Source of the DNA: Candidatus Obscuribacteraceae bacterium
Lineage (GTDB): Bacteria > Cyanobacteriota > Vampirovibrionia > Obscuribacterales > Obscuribacteraceae
Assembly: GCA_044226015.1 (NCBI GenBank)
Contig: JBGAHS010000005.1
Location: 671,116 to 735,115, forward strand
Direction of reading: 5' to 3'
Length of the DNA: 64,000 bases
Shown here: in pieces, positions 1-8,224 of the stretch
How positions within the stretch are numbered: the stretch's first letter is position 1
Layout: every line of letters starts with the position of its first letter
The notes under the pieces: generated by a model
Told to the model about the DNA's origin: nothing
Database searches by the model: none
Seen by the model: the letters and a program-made list of their open reading frames with translations, nothing else
Program-made: the position numbers and the translations under genes

Positions 1-171
1 AGGCTTGCGCGACATCCAATTTGGTAAACAGTCTCTTCAAATCCGTCAACTTCGTAGTTCTCACGCAGTATTTCGGGAATGGTATGATCATTACTTTTCA
101 TCATCGGAGAAATCCAAGCCAACACTCTTTTATCCAAGTATACTGCCAAGTTACTGGCAAAACTATCTGGT

Positions 172-1389
172 TCAAAAGCACTGTCCAATCAAAACAACTC
201 CGGCAAAATTTCGGGCGTCTAGATCTCCTTTTCGAATGCAAAAATAGAGTTTTCCATTGTCTCCCCAGAAAAAGTTTGCTAAGTCGTCAGAAGCTATCTG
301 CAATAACAGCAGCCAGTTATTAGCTGGATCGCCCGGTTCCGAGGATGGCGTGACGAACTGCTTTTGATATTTCGGATCGAATCGTTCCAGTTCTTCGTAG
401 CAGTCCACAAACACGTCCTGCTGTATAAGTTGTGGATGACCAAGCAATTGATGTGTGGGTTCGTCATGCGCGTCACCCTGCCAACCGTAAAGCAGCTCCT
501 CGTATTTATCCCTTTCTTCGTCGGACATGATAATTGATCGGATCGTAGTCGAGCAACCGTCAGGAAGCGTATTTACGCAAGCAAATTCAACAGAACAGGC
601 TGGAAAAGTCTCTTCCGGAAAATCATCCCAGATCGGGTCCGGGGACGGCCGTTGTGCCGGCATTAAAGTGCTTTGGTTTTCAAAATGGAAAACTTTCCAG
701 GATGATGCTATACCGCCAAATGAGAATTCACTTGGATCGGCGAAGAACGAAAGTATGCCGTTTGATGGCAATCCTGAATCTGGCCAAACAGTTGCTATTA
801 CAGAAAGATCGAGCTGGCACAAAAATTCAAGTGGTGCTACAGCCTCACAGTCCACTACTGGCCATTCAAAATCTGGCGGCACATCTGGTATTTCGCCAAA
901 TTTTGTACTAACGCTGCCATCATGGTGCTGGAGCAGATTCAATCGAAGCGATGGCAAAGACAATACCTTCAAGTCATCAATACAATCAGAAAGTCCAACA
1001 AAGTCCAGAGCCTCTTGAAACTTACCCGCTACTGCTAATGCTCTTATTGTTGACTTGCGTTGCTCCATTTCAGCGAGTGTACGATTTTCAACATCAATCA
1101 GTGGATTAATAACATTTCTCAGAGACAGTAGATCCATTCTAATTTTCACATGTTCTTCGTCTTTGGAGCACAGCTTGAGCCCTTTTTCCACGTCTGCCAG
1201 CGCTCTTTTTGTCCACTCTCTCAACAAGCACAATTTTGCCCGCTCAAGAAATGTGACCGGTCGCGGCTCGTAGTATATGGACAGACCAAAGTATCTTTCT
1301 GCAGTTTCGAAGTCGCGAAGCTGCATTCGCTCAAGTGCTTTATTGAATAGCTTTGTGGCGTCCTCAGGATTGTTGCCTTCACTTAGCAT
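172..1389 (-). CDS. TPR-like N-terminus fused to YwqG/DUF1963-family domain
   Basis: N-terminal helical TPR-like repeats; C-terminal PLEFLCQLDL..LPSNGILSFF..HQLLGHPQLIQ..WLLLLQI..WGDNGKLYFCI..DF...Q pattern of DUF1963. Confidence 0.8.
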   Translation of the reverse strand: MLSEGNNPEDATKLFNKALERMQLRDFETAERYFGLSIYYEPRPVTFLERAKLCLLREWTKRALADVEKGLKLCSKDEEHVKIRMDLLSLRNVINPLIDVENRTLAEMEQRKSTIRALAVAGKFQEALDFVGLSDCIDDLKVLSLPSLRLNLLQHHDGSVSTKFGEIPDVPPDFEWPVVDCEAVAPLEFLCQLDLSVIATVWPDSGLPSNGILSFFADPSEFSFGGIASSWKVFHFENQSTLMPAQRPSPDPIWDDFPEETFPACSVEFACVNTLPDGCSTTIRSIIMSDEERDKYEELLYGWQGDAHDEPTHQLLGHPQLIQQDVFVDCYEELERFDPKYQKQFVTPSSEPGDPANNWLLLLQIASDDLANFFWGDNGKLYFCIRKGDLDARNFAGVVLIGQCF

Positions 1390-1426
1390 GATATTCCCTT
1401 AGTAAGCGGCTCTTACTAACCGCAGT

Positions 1427-1843
1427 CTACTCGGTTTTGCCTTTGAGCAATTTGGTCATTCTTTTGGTAAGTGCCTTCTCATCATCGTCAAGCCTCTTCC
1501 GCTGCTTTGACTTTACCTCGCTGACGACAGCGGCAAACTCATTTCGAGATTCCTCATTGTAGCTGTAGCCCCGCCAGGTCAGCTCATACAACACATCGAT
1601 TGCGGCTCCTTGTCTTGCCAGCATTCCGCAAACTCGATTTGTCATTTCTTTGATTGCCTGCGCATATGCTGATTCTTTCTCTAGTGTCTGCTCTTTTTCT
1701 CTTTGGTCGAGATAGAATGCAAGCGCCTCGTGTGCAATTTCGGTTTTCGTTTTGCCATCGAGCCTGGACAGGGCAGACAATCGCTCCTGATCTTTTGCGG
1801 ATAATCCAATGTAGAGGTTTTGATAAGTTTTGGGCTTAGGCAT
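1427..1843 (-). CDS. Ribbon-helix-helix (CopG-like) DNA-binding protein, possible relaxosome accessory factor
   Basis: LYIGLSAKDQERLSALSRLDGKTKTEIAHEALAFYL RHH pattern followed by a helical oligomerisation region; start set at MPKPK. Confidence 0.6.
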   Translation of the reverse strand: MPKPKTYQNLYIGLSAKDQERLSALSRLDGKTKTEIAHEALAFYLDQREKEQTLEKESAYAQAIKEMTNRVCGMLARQGAAIDVLYELTWRGYSYNEESRNEFAAVVSEVKSKQRKRLDDDEKALTKRMTKLLKGKTE

Positions 1844-2029
1844 AATGTACTCAGAGTTAAAAGTATTGCTATTCCTAGCATATACCGATTGTCCCAGAGA
1901 TATCAAGACCGGGGAGAAAAATTGCGGTACCCAAAACGCTAGCCAGTTCTCCGATTCGGGGAATGTGCATATTTCCCTTTATCCTGCTATCTTCGATAAC
2001 GATGGCTTGACACTGGAACTCCGGCTGAT

Positions 2030-2205
2030 CAAGCTCTACTTCGGGACGCTGAAGTAGGGGGAAGGCAAAACAGTCTTTATCTTTAGGACTTGATCCTGTA
2101 ATGGCAGATTTGTTTGCCTTCCCTATCCTGATATGCAGGTCGGACGATATCTAAGACCCACTTTGAGTGAGAGTCTGAATTTAGCAGGTTGACCAAGTCA
2201 GGCAT
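2030..2205 (+). ncRNA. IS110 bridge RNA (5' hairpin, target-binding loop, donor-binding loop); ends approximate
   Basis: CTACTTC/GAAGTAG hairpin; GGGAAGGCAAA/TTTGCCTTCCC stem enclosing CTTTATCTT (2075-2083) and GGCAG (2103-2107); GGTCGG/TTGACC stem enclosing ACGATATCT (2144-2152) and TAGCAG (2182-2187). Confidence 0.8.
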
Positions 2206-2234
2206 ACCATGCGTCTTATAACTAGAAAACTAGA

Positions 2235-3067
2235 ATGAAGAGGGATTGCATGTTCGACTGTTTTGTTGGAATCGACATCTCGAAAGATTTCTTTGATGTT
2301 TCCGTGGAGGTGACAGGGAAAGAGAAACACCATCAGTTTTCACAAACCGAAAAAGGCTTCCAGGGCTTCTTGCGCTGGTTGCAAAAAATCGGAGTTGTGA
2401 ACGCATTGTTCTGCATGGAAGCCACCGGTGCGTATTGGTATGACCTCGCTGATTTTCTTTCACTGGCAGGCGAGTCTGTTAGCGTCGTGAATCCGACTTG
2501 CATCAGGCGATTTGCTCAGAGTGAGCTGAAGCGAACCAAAACAGACAAAGTCGATGCTGGGGTAATTTCCAGATTTGCAAGAACAATGAATCCAAAGCAG
2601 TGGCACCCACCAGCTCCCGAAGTGTGTCAATTACAAATGCTGGTGAGGCGCCTCTACGATCTAACAAAAATTAGGCGCCAGGAGAGAACTCGCTTATCAA
2701 CAGAGAAAAGCAAACCATGCGTCATGGATTCGGTGAACCGCATCCTCAAGTGCTTAGATCTAGAAATCGGTCGTATTCGAAGACAACTGGTGGCATTTGT
2801 AGGTCTGGCCCCAAAGGAAATCAGATCTGGCAGCTCCATCCGTGGACGAACTCGACTATCCAAAACAGGAAATGCTAGATTGCGTTCAGCACTCTTTCTG
2901 CCGGCGATAGTCGCAAAAGATCACAATCCCGTCATTGCGCGATTTTATCGAAACCTAATCGCGAATGGAAAGGTTCCAATGAAGGCCGTTGGAGCCTCCA
3001 TGAGAAAGCTCTTGCACATCATATTTTGAGTACTTAAGTCTGGAACGCCTTTCCGTGACGACATAGT
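2235..3067 (+). pseudogene. IS110 DEDD transposase/recombinase with internal in-frame deletion and premature TGA
   Basis: VGIDISKD, CMEATG, KTDKVDA, GLAP..SGSS..LSKTGNARLRSAL motifs; the usual SIPGIG segment is absent (IRRQ joins directly to LVAFVGL); IIF-TGA-VLKSGTPF continues to TAG near 3066. Confidence 0.85.
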
Positions 3068-3571
3068 CTCCGCTTGAGCTGAGTGGTTCGACAGAGCTTG
3101 GCGCTTAATTCCTTCCAGAAGGGATCAGCGCTCGCGGCCGCATTGGGATCACCTCTAGAAACAATAGCGCTGATTGCGTATGGAAGGAAGCCGACGATGA
3201 AAAACGTCGCATGCCTCTGCTGTCCCTGATCTTGAGCTATTGACACTCGACACGATATCTGCCTTACCTTTATGGTCGGTCCTTCGTCCCTCCCGGCGGT
3301 AAGGCTCCGTGCCTTCAGCACTCCGATTCTGGTTGCGCGTCGTTGCCGACTCCGCGCCGCTGCAATCAAGTCCCAGAATTTCCCTTTCTCCCCGATGGAA
3401 GTATCCGATTACAAACCAGCTGGAGCTGTCAACCTCGGCGCAGCCGCCCGCAGGGCTTGGGGTTGACTGGTCCTGCGTTTGCAATATCATTAAACCGAGG
3501 GGAGAACGCCTATTGGCGCAATCGCGCTGTTGGGTCATAATATTAGTCGGTGAATAAGCAAGGTGCTGGGC

Positions 3572-3874
3572 ATGGACGAACTCATTACGAAGCATATCAG
3601 CAAGACTCCTGGTGTTTGTGGGGGCAGAGCTTGCATTGCCGGTCATCGAATTCGGGTGATGGATATTGTCGTTTGGCACCAGCTACGCGGTTACTCTGCC
3701 GATGAAGTTTGTCAGATGTATCCAGGAATTAATTTGGCCGATGTATATGCGGCACTGACCTATTATTTCGATAACCGCAAAGAAATTGACGATGACTTCG
3801 CAGCTGAGGAAGAGATCGCCAAAGAACTAATGACTCGCCATCCTTCAAAACTTCCCGGCAAGAGAAGTGCATAG
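3572..3874 (+). CDS. DUF433 antitoxin (VapB45-like)
   Basis: ISKTPGVCGGRACIAGHRIRV..GYSADEV..YP..DVYAALTYY. Confidence 0.9.
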   Translation: MDELITKHISKTPGVCGGRACIAGHRIRVMDIVVWHQLRGYSADEVCQMYPGINLADVYAALTYYFDNRKEIDDDFAAEEEIAKELMTRHPSKLPGKRSA

Positions 3875-4202
3875 CCAAATCAGATTCTATCTCGATGAGA
3901 ATATCCAATCTGCTGTCGCGCTGGGATTGAGGATTCGAGGAATTGATGTTCTAACCGCTCAGGAAGCTGGACTGCGTGGAGCATCCGATCTAGAGCATTT
4001 GGCTTTCGCGACTGCAAATGAAAGAGTGCTCGTCACATATGACACAGATTTCCTCGTTATTGACGCGAGCGGTCAGGAGCATAGTGGTATTGCTTGGTGC
4101 CATTCAACAAAATACTCCTTGGGTGCCCTTATTCTGGCGCTTGTTTACGTCCATTCCGTCATTACTCCCGAAGAGATGCGGAATCACATTGAATATTTGT
4201 AG
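3867..4202 (+). CDS. DUF5615 PIN-like toxin (VapC45-like)
   Basis: FYLDENI..LRIRGIDV..SDLEHL..RVLVTYDTDF..HSGI; overlaps the DUF433 gene by 8 nt. Confidence 0.9.
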   Translation: MHSQIRFYLDENIQSAVALGLRIRGIDVLTAQEAGLRGASDLEHLAFATANERVLVTYDTDFLVIDASGQEHSGIAWCHSTKYSLGALILALVYVHSVITPEEMRNHIEYL

Positions 4203-4286
4203 ACCGGCGTATCAGCTTCAAATGAAAGTTCAGTTATCTATGGAATTTGTGAATCAGACTATGGTCTTTAGTCAATTGAAGCCTGC

Positions 4287-4805
4287 TTGATGGTGCCGAT
4301 TCCTGTAGAATTGAAAAAAGAGGTGACAGTCCCGTCAAAAGCCTGGTGGACAATGTCAGAAGAGGAAGCGGAACCGAAAACTCAGGTTGAGAGCAGCAAA
4401 GGTGGGGCGGGCGGTTTTCCGCCAACGCGGATTGGTTCCGGCCAACATCCGCAGCTGCCTCAGCCAAATTCTGTGATCTGCTGCAGCTGCAAACAGCCGG
4501 TAACAAAATATCAGCCGGTCTTGCCGTTTATGGCTGCATATGTTTGCATGGATTGTATGAAAAAACAGAAGCAGAAACCTATTCCGGTCTCCGAAATCAC
4601 AAATAAGTCTTTTGCTCCATGGACATCGGAAGAAGTTGATAATATCAACGAGTACCAGCAGTCAAACAGTTTTCTCCCATTCGTTTGTCCAGCACGACAC
4701 ATTTTAAAAGCCAGAACCGAAGGATTCTATTGTTCCGCCTGTCCACAATTTTCTTTGAACTGGACATATCCTTGGGTACTTGATTTATTTTGGAAACAGC
4801 TTTAG
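4287..4805 (+). CDS. Hypothetical protein with several CxxC pairs (possible Zn-binding)
   Basis: CSC..CMDC and CPARH..CSAC motifs; 172-aa ORF. Confidence 0.55.
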   Translation: MMVPIPVELKKEVTVPSKAWWTMSEEEAEPKTQVESSKGGAGGFPPTRIGSGQHPQLPQPNSVICCSCKQPVTKYQPVLPFMAAYVCMDCMKKQKQKPIPVSEITNKSFAPWTSEEVDNINEYQQSNSFLPFVCPARHILKARTEGFYCSACPQFSLNWTYPWVLDLFWKQL

Positions 4806-4855
4806 TTATCTCCAGGTTGTCCGAGCTACCGCATCATGATTCGATTCTTTCTGGA

Positions 4856-6090
4856 TTAGGTTGTTTTTTGCTTAATCTTCTTTACCTGTCCTTTTCGTGA
4901 CAGCAACTTATTCGGATCTTTCAATGCCTCTTGCGCTTTTTCCAATGCCTGCCGCACTGGGTCTTGAGTGAGTCGAGCATAGACCGATGTAGACGCCATA
5001 GAGCGATGGCCCAGAGCCTTGCCTATGATTGTAGGGCTGACGTTCTGAATCGCCATGTAACTGCCAGCGGTGCGCCTTAAATCATGAATTCGAAGATCCT
5101 CGATACCAGCACGTTCAACAATTCGCTGGAACGCTTTTCTCGGTGAGACTATATGACCTTTATCGCCAGATTTCCAGCCTTTTCTGTCAGATGGAAATAC
5201 CCAGACCGGATGCAAGTCATCAGCTTTCTTCCGGTTACGCAAGATTTCCAGTGCATTTAGGGTAAGCGGAATTGTCTGCGAATCGCCGCTCTTTGTGAGT
5301 GGAATTCGCCACTGCTGCAGGTCAAAATTCACCTCATCCCACCGCATCGCCATTACATTTGACACTCGTGCACCTGTATACAAGCACATCCAGAAGAAAT
5401 CTCGAATCAGTGGGTAAGGTTCTGCGTTCAGCGCATTTGCAAATTTCTTGAATTCTTCACCTGGTTGGATGAATCTTTCCCTGGGTTTACTCTTGAATGT
5501 TGTAATTCCCTGGCATGGATTTTCGCCTGTGAAAATTCCTTGTCCAATGCTCCAGGTGAAGACGGCGCGCATGGTGTTGTAATTTCGAGTGGAGGTGCTT
5601 TTGCCATTAGTTCTTGCAAGATTATTCACCCAGCTCTGGATCTGTCGCGAGTAATTTTTGTGATCGGCCGCTTGTCGAACTGCTGAAAATAGCGTTGGTG
5701 GTTTTTCTCAATTTCCTTCCAGGTTACGGTGTGTAGGCTGGCATATTCCTCTATATATCTTCTAAAGATTTCCCCATACGTCGGCGGAGGCGGTTCAGTA
5801 ATCGAAGGATCTTTTCCAAGTCCAATAAGGTGATTCAGTTCAGTCGCCTTCGTTCTCGCCTGCTCAAGCGACACATCACCGTACTTGCCAATAGTGAACT
5901 CGATGATCTTGCGAGGCGATTCATTGTTGTCCGGCAGCCGCCGGTAATAAACAAAGGTCTTTACTCCACTCGGACGTACCCGCATACCCAGCCCTTGGAC
6001 TTCGGTATCCATCACTCGCATGTGCCGCCTCTTGGCTGGGCATACTAGCCCGTCAAGTTTGTCGATCCGAAAATTAAAGGTCGTGTCCAT
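4856..6090 (-). pseudogene. Tyrosine integrase (N-terminal arm-binding domain), split by one frameshift near 5645
   Basis: GLGMRVRPSGVKTF..TIGKYG..SLEQAR..GKDP arm domain; TGAR, TKSG, HDLRR, LGH, VY catalytic residues; KITRD/IQSWVNN frame change. Confidence 0.9.
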
Positions 6091-6132
6091 CCAGCCGATT
6101 TCCTACTACCAATATTAATAAGTACCGATTTG

Positions 6133-6154
6133 GGCCCTACATAGGCCCTACATA
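6133..6154. repeat. Tandem 11-bp direct repeat GGCCCTACATA, probable integrase arm-type site
   Basis: Two exact adjacent copies between the integrase start and the att copy. Confidence 0.6.
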
Positions 6155-6283
6155 GAAGCGAAAATTTGACCTATTTGCATCTATGCTCAGAAAATTATAG
6201 AACATCCAGAAGGATTATCTACATTAGCTTCGCGGCATTTCCATCAACAATCGGAAAACCCCGAAAACACGTTGACCCATTTT

Positions 6284-6325
6284 GTCCTAAGGAGGGTGTC
6301 GGGAGTTCGAGTCTCTCCGAGGGTG
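6284..6325 (+). repeat. att site: 3' half of tRNA-Arg(CCT), not an intact tRNA
   Basis: T-CCT-AA anticodon loop, GGAGG stem strand, T-arm GGGAG-TTCGAGT-CTCTC, acceptor strand CGAGGGT-G; no D-arm upstream. Confidence 0.85.
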
Positions 6326-7069
6326 AAGTTTAGGCAATCTTTTTGGGATTTGACGTTATGTAGACTGACTGATTGTCTCGGTTTCGATAAGTGTGGTTTC
6401 GGAAACGATTGACTGGCGGTCGTATTAGAGATGTGCTAGATCGGATTGTTCTAGTTGCGAGTCCTTTGGGGGTGCAATAGGGGTGCTTGGTTGTCAGAAG
6501 GCTTCCAGTTTTTGCTGTTTTGACTCCAAACAATTTCAGGTGCCAGTGTGTTAACGAAGTTGGGCTAGTGGCAGGTTCGCTGCCGATGTGCCGATACCAT
6601 CTCTGGTGCTACTGTACCCGCCCTGGCAAGTTGGCTTTTGCGAAACATGCCCTGCTCATGTGCTATCCCGGTGCCTGGAGGACAGGTCATTTGTGTTGGT
6701 ATGACTAGCGCCTTTCGGACTTGCTGTGCTTTTTGTCCACGTGGTACTAGCCTGCCCGCGCCACTGTGATGAAGCAGTGAGAGCATGTTAAGCAGTGGCT
6801 CCGCTATTATTACGTGCCTGCTATTCCAGGGCATGGATGCGCGTTGGAGCGAAGACGAGCCTAGTGCCACACCGGTAGGCTAGCGCCAGTGCGCTTGTAC
6901 ATGTTGGCGGTCGGACGTGGGCGGATCAGACTACGCCCTGCTGATAAGCATGCTTACGGTAGGGGCTACTGCGCCCATTTGCCCTGCCGCCTCGCCGGCG
7001 CCGGGCACTGTGAAATCCTGCTCCAAATAAGCCTGCATTCTGCTATGTTCCTGGCAGGGAGATCGAAAC

Positions 7070-7399
7070 ATGTATATCCATAATATATACAGCTCGCATG
7101 TTACCGCCGATGGCGAGCAACGCACCTATCAGAAACGTTTGCTGAGGGTCGCCCGCCGGCAAGGCGGCCGCATATTGAATCGAACAATCGCCAACGTCAC
7201 AAAATGGGAAGCAGAGAAGCTCTCCTTGTTGATGGATGCATTGGCTGCTAAACGGGGCGCCAAAGAGTTTTCTACGAGTGAGCAGGCTGACCAATCGCTT
7301 TTCTGTTTTTTACTCTCTATGGGTGTTGAACCCTGGCGCTTGATGCAGACTGATGCAACTCGCCATTCTGGAAAAAAGAAAAGGCGCTTAGGGATCTAA
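7070..7399 (+). pseudogene. Remnant resembling the N-terminus of an IS1634-family transposase
   Basis: MYI..Y..LLR..R.GGRILNRTIANVTKW pattern; no DDE domain follows. Confidence 0.55.
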
Positions 7400-7657
7400 G
7401 TCCAAGGCTAAAAGTATATTTTCTGCCAGGTCGCTATCGGTCAGTTCATGTTTATCAGGATCCCATTCTCCAAAATATCCACGGATAATCGAAACATAGT
7501 TGAGATTGCCATTGACGTAATTACACGCTTCTTCAAGCAGAGCTCGGTACTTTTCTTGTGACTTTGTGCTCTTCGACCTGCTTGCTTTTGCTGCGGCAGT
7601 TAATATTGGTCTGAGGTCTTGAACCGCCTGGCGTCTTTCTCGTTCATGCCTGTCCAT
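7388..7657 (-). CDS. Hypothetical protein
   Basis: 89-aa ORF with AAGGA upstream of ATG. Confidence 0.55.
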   Translation of the reverse strand: MDRHERERRQAVQDLRPILTAAAKASRSKSTKSQEKYRALLEEACNYVNGNLNYVSIIRGYFGEWDPDKHELTDSDLAENILLALDLDP

Positions 7658-7819
7658 TTTCCATTCCTTAATCCTGAATCCTGAGTTTCCGGGAGCTATC
7701 TTTTAGATATACATCAACCTTGAAAAGATCGCAAAATGACATCGCTTTTGCGATCGCTGGACTTTGTTGCTCGCTAATCGGCTTACCGGGAAACCGTGTA
7801 TTTCGTTGAGAGAAGCAAA

Positions 7820-8224
7820 TTAACGTAGCAAAAATTCAAATGTTGGATCAGGACCACCGGACAGGAAGAAACTAGTAAAAACATAGATCGCCATTGCTAT
7901 TGCTGCGAGCAGTTTTAGAAATCCGAAGATCACTCCATGCGGCGAACGCCAATTCGCAGTTTTGATGACTACTTCGAACTCACCTACCAAATAAATAATT
8001 GAGATGGGCAGCGCCATTGCTATGACTTCGACTAGAAGCAAGTCGTAACCTTTCAGCCCGAAAAACATGGGTTGGTTCGGCTTAAGCATTGCTAGGACTA
8101 ATAAAGGCAAGCCGATTATGGTACCGATAGCGAAAAAAGGCAGCCAACGAATCGATAGCTTTTCAGCCGTTGTAATATGAGTATCGGTTTCTCTTGCGGC
8201 TAAAACTTCTGCCAGCTTGTCCAT
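7820..8224 (-). CDS. Hypothetical membrane protein (about 3 TM)
   Basis: Three hydrophobic segments, GAGGG upstream. Confidence 0.65.
   Translation of the reverse strand: MDKLAEVLAARETDTHITTAEKLSIRWLPFFAIGTIIGLPLLVLAMLKPNQPMFFGLKGYDLLLVEVIAMALPISIIYLVGEFEVVIKTANWRSPHGVIFGFLKLLAAIAMAIYVFTSFFLSGGPDPTFEFLLR

Follow-up and report, generated by a model that had tools for sequence, protein, structure and literature searches.

The insertion sequence (IS) at positions 1977..3265 of the window, by which we mean the whole 64,000-nucleotide stretch of DNA analyzed here, belongs to the IS110 group and is of the IS621 type, with a bridge RNA in its left end. We consider it highly probable, from the sequences compared, that the guides of this RNA match the motif CTTTATC-YT-GCMTTAC at the junctions of the element itself, that this motif is likely a MOB-P-like nick site of mobile elements, and that the IS is therefore likely to home on mobile DNA. 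The mechanism is a known one, that of IS621, and the kind of target is new.

Structure of the element

The site and the element comprise the following features, in window coordinates.

1427..1843, minus strand: gene for an RHH (NikA-like), relaxosome-accessory-like protein of 138 aa, starting approximately 135 nt from the motif and directed away from it
1947..1963, plus strand: imperfect inverted repeat on the 5' side of the nick-like motif, a candidate relaxosome binding arm, its putative role taken from the layout of MOB-P oriT (PMC3772185)
1977..1985, plus strand: left target CTTTATC (1977-1983) and CT core (1984-1985), which with the next GC form TATCCTGC, the MOB-P nick consensus
1986..2249, plus strand: left end of the IS, with the right donor GCTATC, the -10 box TATCTT (1988-1993), and the bridge RNA
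2036..2057, plus strand: 5' stem-loop of the predicted bridge RNA, from the fold
2075..2083, plus strand: left target guide (LTG) CTTTATCTT, whose U at core position 8 forms a Watson-Crick pair with TT targets and a wobble pair with CT
2098..2109, plus strand: right target guide (RTG) GTAATGGCAG (2098-2107, containing GGCAG at 2103-2107) and handshake AU; with one bulged base, it fits GCCTTAC or GCATTAC
2144..2152, plus strand: left donor guide (LDG) ACGATATCT, matching at 9 of 9 positions
2177..2189, plus strand: right donor guide (RDG), with the core part TAGCAG at 2182-2187, extended by GAA.., and handshake GU
2250..3077, plus strand: IS110 recombinase gene, broken by a 141-bp in-frame deletion at approximately 2783-2786 and a TGA at 3027-3029; natural stop at 3075-3077
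3078..3260, plus strand: right end of the IS, with the -35 box TTGACA (3240-3245), the left donor ACGATAT (3252-3258), and the CT core
3261..3305, plus strand: right target GCCTTAC and the oriT-like site's 3' half, which contains an inverted repeat with 8-bp arms (3261-3268 and 3298-3305)
4856..6326, no strand assigned: frameshifted tyrosine integrase and a 43-bp att copy of tRNA-Arg(CCT), bounding the host island

The target CTTTATC-CT and the donor, core, guide, and promoter motifs previously read from the letters were all found where they had been placed, with the CT core of the window copy at 1984-1985 and 3259-3260. A profile search identified the domains PF01548 and PF02371 in the product of the recombinase gene, in which D9, E57, D99, and D102 represent the RuvC-like DEDD residues and an SGSS motif at residues 193-196 the Tnp domain with its conserved serine. 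Alignment with an intact relative of 319 aa (P0002), which scored above the cut-off of NF033542, revealed that 47 residues are absent in frame and that a stop occurs 16 codons early, thereby bearing out the earlier note's description of the recombinase as broken. Since the gene is broken, the window copy is non-autonomous, yet it is still a member of the IS110 group.

Across the joined ends, TTGACA and TATCTT are separated by a spacer of exactly 17 nt in the sequence, as had been claimed, and a sigma-70-like promoter is predicted at the circle junction. The circle joint itself was not seen in the read contigs of four runs, from which rare forms drop out. Regarding classification, the guides lie upstream of the gene and there is no long downstream non-coding region, on which basis the element falls outside the IS1111 group, and it encodes the IS110 recombinase only, with neither a relaxase nor an integrase of its own, which places it apart from IME_oriT.

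Bridge RNA and guide specificity

The guides are arranged upstream of the gene in the order LTG-RTG-LDG-RDG, and all four in this order never arose in 20,000 dinucleotide-shuffled left ends. Four guides in the known order had been described before, and all are present; the RTG is longer than it had been read, extending to the sequence listed above with one bulge. The dinucleotides AU and GU follow the right guides and positions 6-7 of the donor are AT, a handshake pattern of AU and GU that has been described for IS621 (PMC13626964). In six distinct elements, every guide fits its own flank best or equal best, and this co-variation of guides and flanks, together with the empty orthologous site described below, supports the assignment of an IS621-type IS110 with a left-end bridge RNA that had been proposed.

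The related claim that each guide sits in an internal loop holds in part. The MFE structure partly pairs the LTG and RTG (mean unpaired probabilities in the single-sequence fold, 0.52 and 0.47), whereas in the consensus fold of 18 homologous left ends the four guides all lie in a pair of loops that are closed by co-varying stems; 11 of the 15 consensus pairs show two-sided changes. The single-sequence fold is stable (z -3.6), and the form with all guides open costs 5.5 kcal/mol. In the shuffle control for the consensus fold, which leaves the kinship of the homologues uncontrolled, 0-1 of 500 shuffles reached the observed value on four of five measures and 356 of 500 on pair types. An Rfam scan of window positions 1-8000 gave no matches.

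The true target and the empty orthologous site

The target is longer than first thought and reads CTTTATC-YT-GCMTTAC. The form CTTTATC-CT-GCCTT given in the earlier note was correct in sequence and place; its right target has 7 nt, GCCTTAC, and the first core base may be C or T. An empty orthologous site, which had been suggested as a check, was found in a sister species (L170 in G002), where the whole 16-mer stands scarless and without an IS as CTTTATC-TT-GCCTTAC, with TT as the core, and the flanks are identical to those of the window at 89 of 90 nt on the right and 39 of 47 nt on the left. Both ends of the IS are fixed by this site. Two right ends of a related element in genome G004 also finish in GCCTTAC.

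The initial search pattern for the motif was derived from the flanks of the IS. The 14-mer TTATCYTGCMTTAC gave 110 matches in 52 of 103 other genomes of the family, against 9 for the reversed pattern used as a control. When the variable positions were freed, the first was C or T in 90 of 94 matches and the second C or A in 91, both conditions holding in 88 (hand count); these C/T and C/A variants are the ones readable by the guides. The combination of U in one guide and G in another at core position 8, together with the bulge of the RTG, would let one RNA read both variants of the site, which suggests that one guide may read two natural targets and bears on bridge-RNA design.

The stretches GCMTTAC and TTTATC are common to all copies of the IS, as would be expected if they belonged to its ends, the boundaries were misplaced, and the match to a host motif was an artefact. 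This reading is refuted by L170, which has the whole 16-mer without any IS, and no IS110 gene starts directly behind the 14-mer at 96 of 97 sites; we regard it as hardly credible.

Association of the motif with mobilization genes

Of the 110 motif sites, 97 were fetched; RHH and relaxase profiles were built from the first set of 32 sites, and the remaining 65 were held out. An RHH and/or relaxase gene adjoins the motif at 50 of the 97 sites, with both genes at 44, and lies 5' of the motif in divergent orientation at 31 of the 65 held-out sites and 19 of the 32 training sites; no other arrangement of these genes relative to the motif occurred among the 97 sites. The distance between motif and gene is mostly 130-185 nt, and the chance rate of this arrangement is approximately 3e-4. 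The remainder consists of 43 sites with neither gene, three with short flanks, and one filled by an IS.

The nick consensus described for MOB-P elements is (C/T)ATCCTG(C/T), flanked 5' by an inverted repeat and located upstream of the relaxase (PMC3772185), and the 9-mer 3' product of an RP4 oligonucleotide puts the cut after G (PMC3772185). The left junction in the window, TATCCTGC, fits this consensus on the expected strand. Across the family, ATCCTG is present exactly at 39 of 97 sites, and ATCTTG, one base off the published consensus, at 58. At the window site, the arms at 1947-1963 are 7 bp long and imperfect. In the 8-bp inverted repeat on the other side, one of the other copies in the genome (C9b) carries the compensatory change GCATTACC/GGTAATGC. 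An attC-like reading of the flanking hairpin was dropped because the sites stand before RHH/relaxase genes.

The fixed spacing of 130-185 nt from the RHH start in most linked sites might also be explained if the motif controlled the RHH gene, as its operator or part of its promoter, and were not a nick site. We consider this very unlikely, since the core is constant though the RHH proteins are only approximately 26-80% alike and the 5' flank is variable, the MOB-P nick consensus is matched on the expected strand, and RHH is absent at about half of the copies, some of which stand in tandem arrays. The target motif is likely the conjugative nick site (oriT core) of MOB-P-like elements, and the family, for which we found no literature on conjugation, gains with it a candidate oriT resolved to the predicted nick base, along with a natural guide-target pair. 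The earlier note spoke of a new instance with its own specificity; the instance is confirmed, and the wording understated the specificity, the target being a conserved relaxase-linked motif that fits the MOB-P nick.

In the genome of the window, the only near-exact empty site is on a 70-kb contig with overlapping ends (C2), where it precedes a NikA-like RHH gene (E 1e-4, below cut-off), a PF03432 relaxase gene (above cut-off), and a gene for a VirD4/TraG coupling protein. This relaxase scored below the cut-off of NF041267 and has a visible Tyr and 3H-like motifs; the best match in a PDB search with it had an E of 0.2. The contig (L171:1900-6040, G000:C2) is probably a plasmid, carries the sole relaxase of its family found in the genome, and is a candidate helper for islands. 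The site in the window lies in an island of approximately 14 kb at tRNA-Arg and has RHH alone beside the motif, with no relaxase there or in the island; the RHH protein is 35% identical (E 6e-24) to that before the C2 relaxase.

Several further observations concern the islands. A frameshift near 5626-5629 divides the integrase in two, and islands in tandem are suggested by additional att copies at C8:663724 and C8:686344. A DUF433/DUF5615 (PIN-like) pair of the toxin-antitoxin type is found at window positions 3563-4202, where the island would have its leading region. Elsewhere, tandem orphan oriT-like units with differing 5' arms stand approximately 175 or 350 nt apart (L190:3586-4122; L214, L242, L246, L258, and L177); an excisionase-like gene is nearby in some, and they look like oriT mimics for several helper specificities.

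Other copies in the genome and evidence from reads

Two further copies are present in the same genome on contig C9, approximately 2.5 kb apart. The earlier note had considered that other copies might have different ends; the ends are common to all three copies, as is the 16-nt target. The three read YTTTATC-YT on the left and CT-GCMTTAC on the right, and both C9 copies have TT at the left junction and CT at the right.

The C9 copies are indel-rich in the assembly. Short-read contigs of a sample that may be the source contain a gap-free 952-nt coding path over 2252-3062 (X3 record 17) in which the missing segment is present, with C9-type letters and no early stop; chimerism is possible in a contig path of this kind, and two deletions of 2 nt appear at low depth in X2. 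The depth of the IS in X1 is approximately 33 versus 12 in the flank. From this path and the raised depth, the C9 indels probably arose in assembly, and the genome probably contains an intact copy. The early stop codon of the window copy was seen in the read contigs (X1 record 4), and the 141-bp deletion is known from the assembly and absent from the read records shown. With two more copies and a gap-free full-length coding path in the same sample, the mobilization of the window copy in trans by the protein of another copy, as had been proposed, is plausible.

The C9 copies (L001:5250-10650, G000:C9) point the same way on either side of a 766-aa LRR/TPR gene, with which they could make up a composite unit. 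On the 5' side of copy C9a, a non-coding stretch of 140 nt (L001:10790-10930) recurs at G000:C12:322091-322224 with 75% identity.

Related IS110 lineages

The element in the window represents clade A, the sister of which, clade B, comprises seven loci at approximately 43-45% identity with the same RNA scaffold and the same left donor guide, its target guides being shifted 4 nt downstream on the same motif (ATCTTGC-CT-TAC). The clades join at 93/78 support, a node that is not starred in a tree with a midpoint root, and likely had a single origin; their independent convergence was considered and is unsupported, as they are sisters. IS621 cuts after the core (PMC11208158), and by analogy the cut of clade A would fall 1 nt before the predicted nick and that of clade B 3 nt after it. 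The left ends of clade A begin with GC, rebuilding TATCYTG^C, and four of six left ends of clade B begin with TAC, rebuilding the whole motif. In a relative of clade A (L174), a changed right guide matches GCCTC in a second motif, YTTATCCTGCCWCYG; RHH and relaxase genes adjoin four of its 14 matches, and a further four, which have no IS, are similar to the L174 site.

Further IS110 clades of the family (L104-L108 and L183) have the same RNA scaffold as these elements, with different guides. A second right-end-like sequence and an empty motif follow a clade B element at a distance of approximately 0.7-0.9 kb (L180:2264-2433), possibly a remnant or a non-autonomous derivative. A metagenome scan returned only five distant relatives at 27-33%, a scan of viral contigs two matches, neither of which was an IS end, and no relaxase is annotated within 4 kb of the best match on a plasmid (Leptolyngbya, 45%); a search with the pattern GACGATATCTNNGNNCC was uninformative.

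Occupied and empty sites, and what the element may gain

We compared 93 empty sites with the 15 filled sites for which 1.5 kb or more of 5' flank was available. Those left out were L195, L199, and L201 (not IS ends) and L194 and L204 (ambiguous), which came from 14 matches to the left-junction pattern, as well as L180 (312-nt flank). RHH and relaxase are both present at one of 15 filled sites (L187) versus 44 of 93 empty sites (Fisher p 0.004), and either gene is present at three of 15 versus 50 of 93 (Fisher p 0.024), related sites not being independent in either comparison. This depletion speaks against simple hitch-hiking. The sites on C9 are orphan copies near an integrase; the 5' flanks of these copies resemble those of relaxase-linked sites even when the motif is masked (p 0.002 and 0.0007), and no significant likeness of this kind outside the core motif was found for the filled sites L174, L175, L176, L178, and L187. 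The simplest reading would be that insertion into the only oriT of a plasmid is costly and that insertions persist in spare copies; islands with an oriT and no relaxase (iOriT) have been described (bioRxiv 10.64898/2026.01.13.699239).

A mechanism may be proposed by analogy with IS621. The IS would be excised as a circle, its joined ends forming a promoter from which the bridge RNA is made, and the top strands at the target would be cut after the core, 1 nt 5' of the predicted nick. A left end starting with GC would rebuild TATCYTG^C, with the conserved 3' CTTAC displaced. Insertions appear to survive mainly in spare copies of oriT on islands that lack a relaxase; a resident relaxase, for example that on C2, would mobilize these islands in trans, and the window copy would be movable only with protein from another copy. 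Use of the nick site, which would be a new class of target, would offer an element of 1.4 kb a route between cells and may act as a brake on plasmid transfer.

Whether the element benefits is a separate matter. The motif may be the oriT core and nevertheless serve as a mere repeated intergenic landing pad, as REP does for IS621, so that insertion damages transfer, the survivors are those in spare sites, and nothing is gained from conjugation. This account, to which we assign somewhat short of an even chance, agrees with our preferred explanation on the identity of the target and differs from it on the benefit. It is favored by the depletion of complete RHH and relaxase modules at filled sites and by the removal of the conserved CTTAC from the 3' side of the nick upon clade A insertion, whereas the restoration of the entire motif by four of six clade B left ends, the one filled site that both genes adjoin (L187/L197), and the re-aiming of a relative at another relaxase-linked motif instead of an arbitrary repeat argue against it. 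Going beyond our preferred explanation, the IS110 lineage may be specialized on conjugative nick sites, with guides that slide by 4 nt or are re-programmed across oriT families and left ends that rebuild the nick, such that the IS is the first to enter the recipient as an RNA-guided hitch-hiker. We put this forward tentatively and lean against it; if true, the bridge RNAs of the lineage could be read as a directory of unknown oriTs.

Comparison with known systems

The intact relative P0002 matched the structures of IS621 and ISCro4 (IS622; PDB 8wt6 and 9t56) with E values of approximately 1e-64 each. The element shares with these two (PMC11208160, PMC11208158, and PMC13626964) the left-end RNA, the LTG-RTG-LDG-RDG order, the CT core, the junction promoter, the AU/GU handshake, and AT at donor positions 6-7. 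It differs from them in that its target is oriT-like and not REP, the RTG is longer and bulged, the LTG carries TT at the core, and the copy is broken.

The natural targets described for bridge and seek RNAs in the literature consulted are REP, attC, and the inverted repeats of Tn21 (PMC11187229; bioRxiv 10.64898/2026.03.19.712850). ISKpn4 and ISPst6, which insert into attC, and IS4321 and IS5075, which insert into the Tn21 inverted repeats, resemble the present element in the RNA-guided insertion into a conserved functional site of a mobile element, but are of the IS1111 type with the non-coding region downstream (PMC11187229). The term oriT has no match in the main text of that article (PMC11187229). 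No report of an IS110 element aimed at oriT was found in a literature that was mostly open-access, without supplements or ISfinder, and the supplementary table of targets in PMC11208160 may be relevant to whether the finding is new; the available portions of bioRxiv 10.64898/2026.08.14.744561 and PMC9709138 do not report one.

The streptococcal IME_oriT (PMC7563843) are likewise mobile elements that integrate in the oriT of a conjugative element. They differ in having their own relaxase and recombination module, separate excision and transfer, and MobT ICE targets, and their abstract does not describe an RNA guide (PMC7563843). The island in the window resembles the iOriT islands in carrying an oriT(-like) site with the relaxase absent; the abstract of that preprint covers six nosocomial species, among which the host group of the window is not included (bioRxiv 10.64898/2026.01.13.699239). 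The target itself is most readily compared with the MOB-P oriT of RP4 and of tfs4 from H. pylori (PMC3772185), with which it shares the (C/T)ATCCTG(C/T) core, the position upstream of the relaxase, and possibly the 5' inverted repeat, and from which it differs in that ATCTTG is the commoner form in this family and the 3' CTTAC is conserved.
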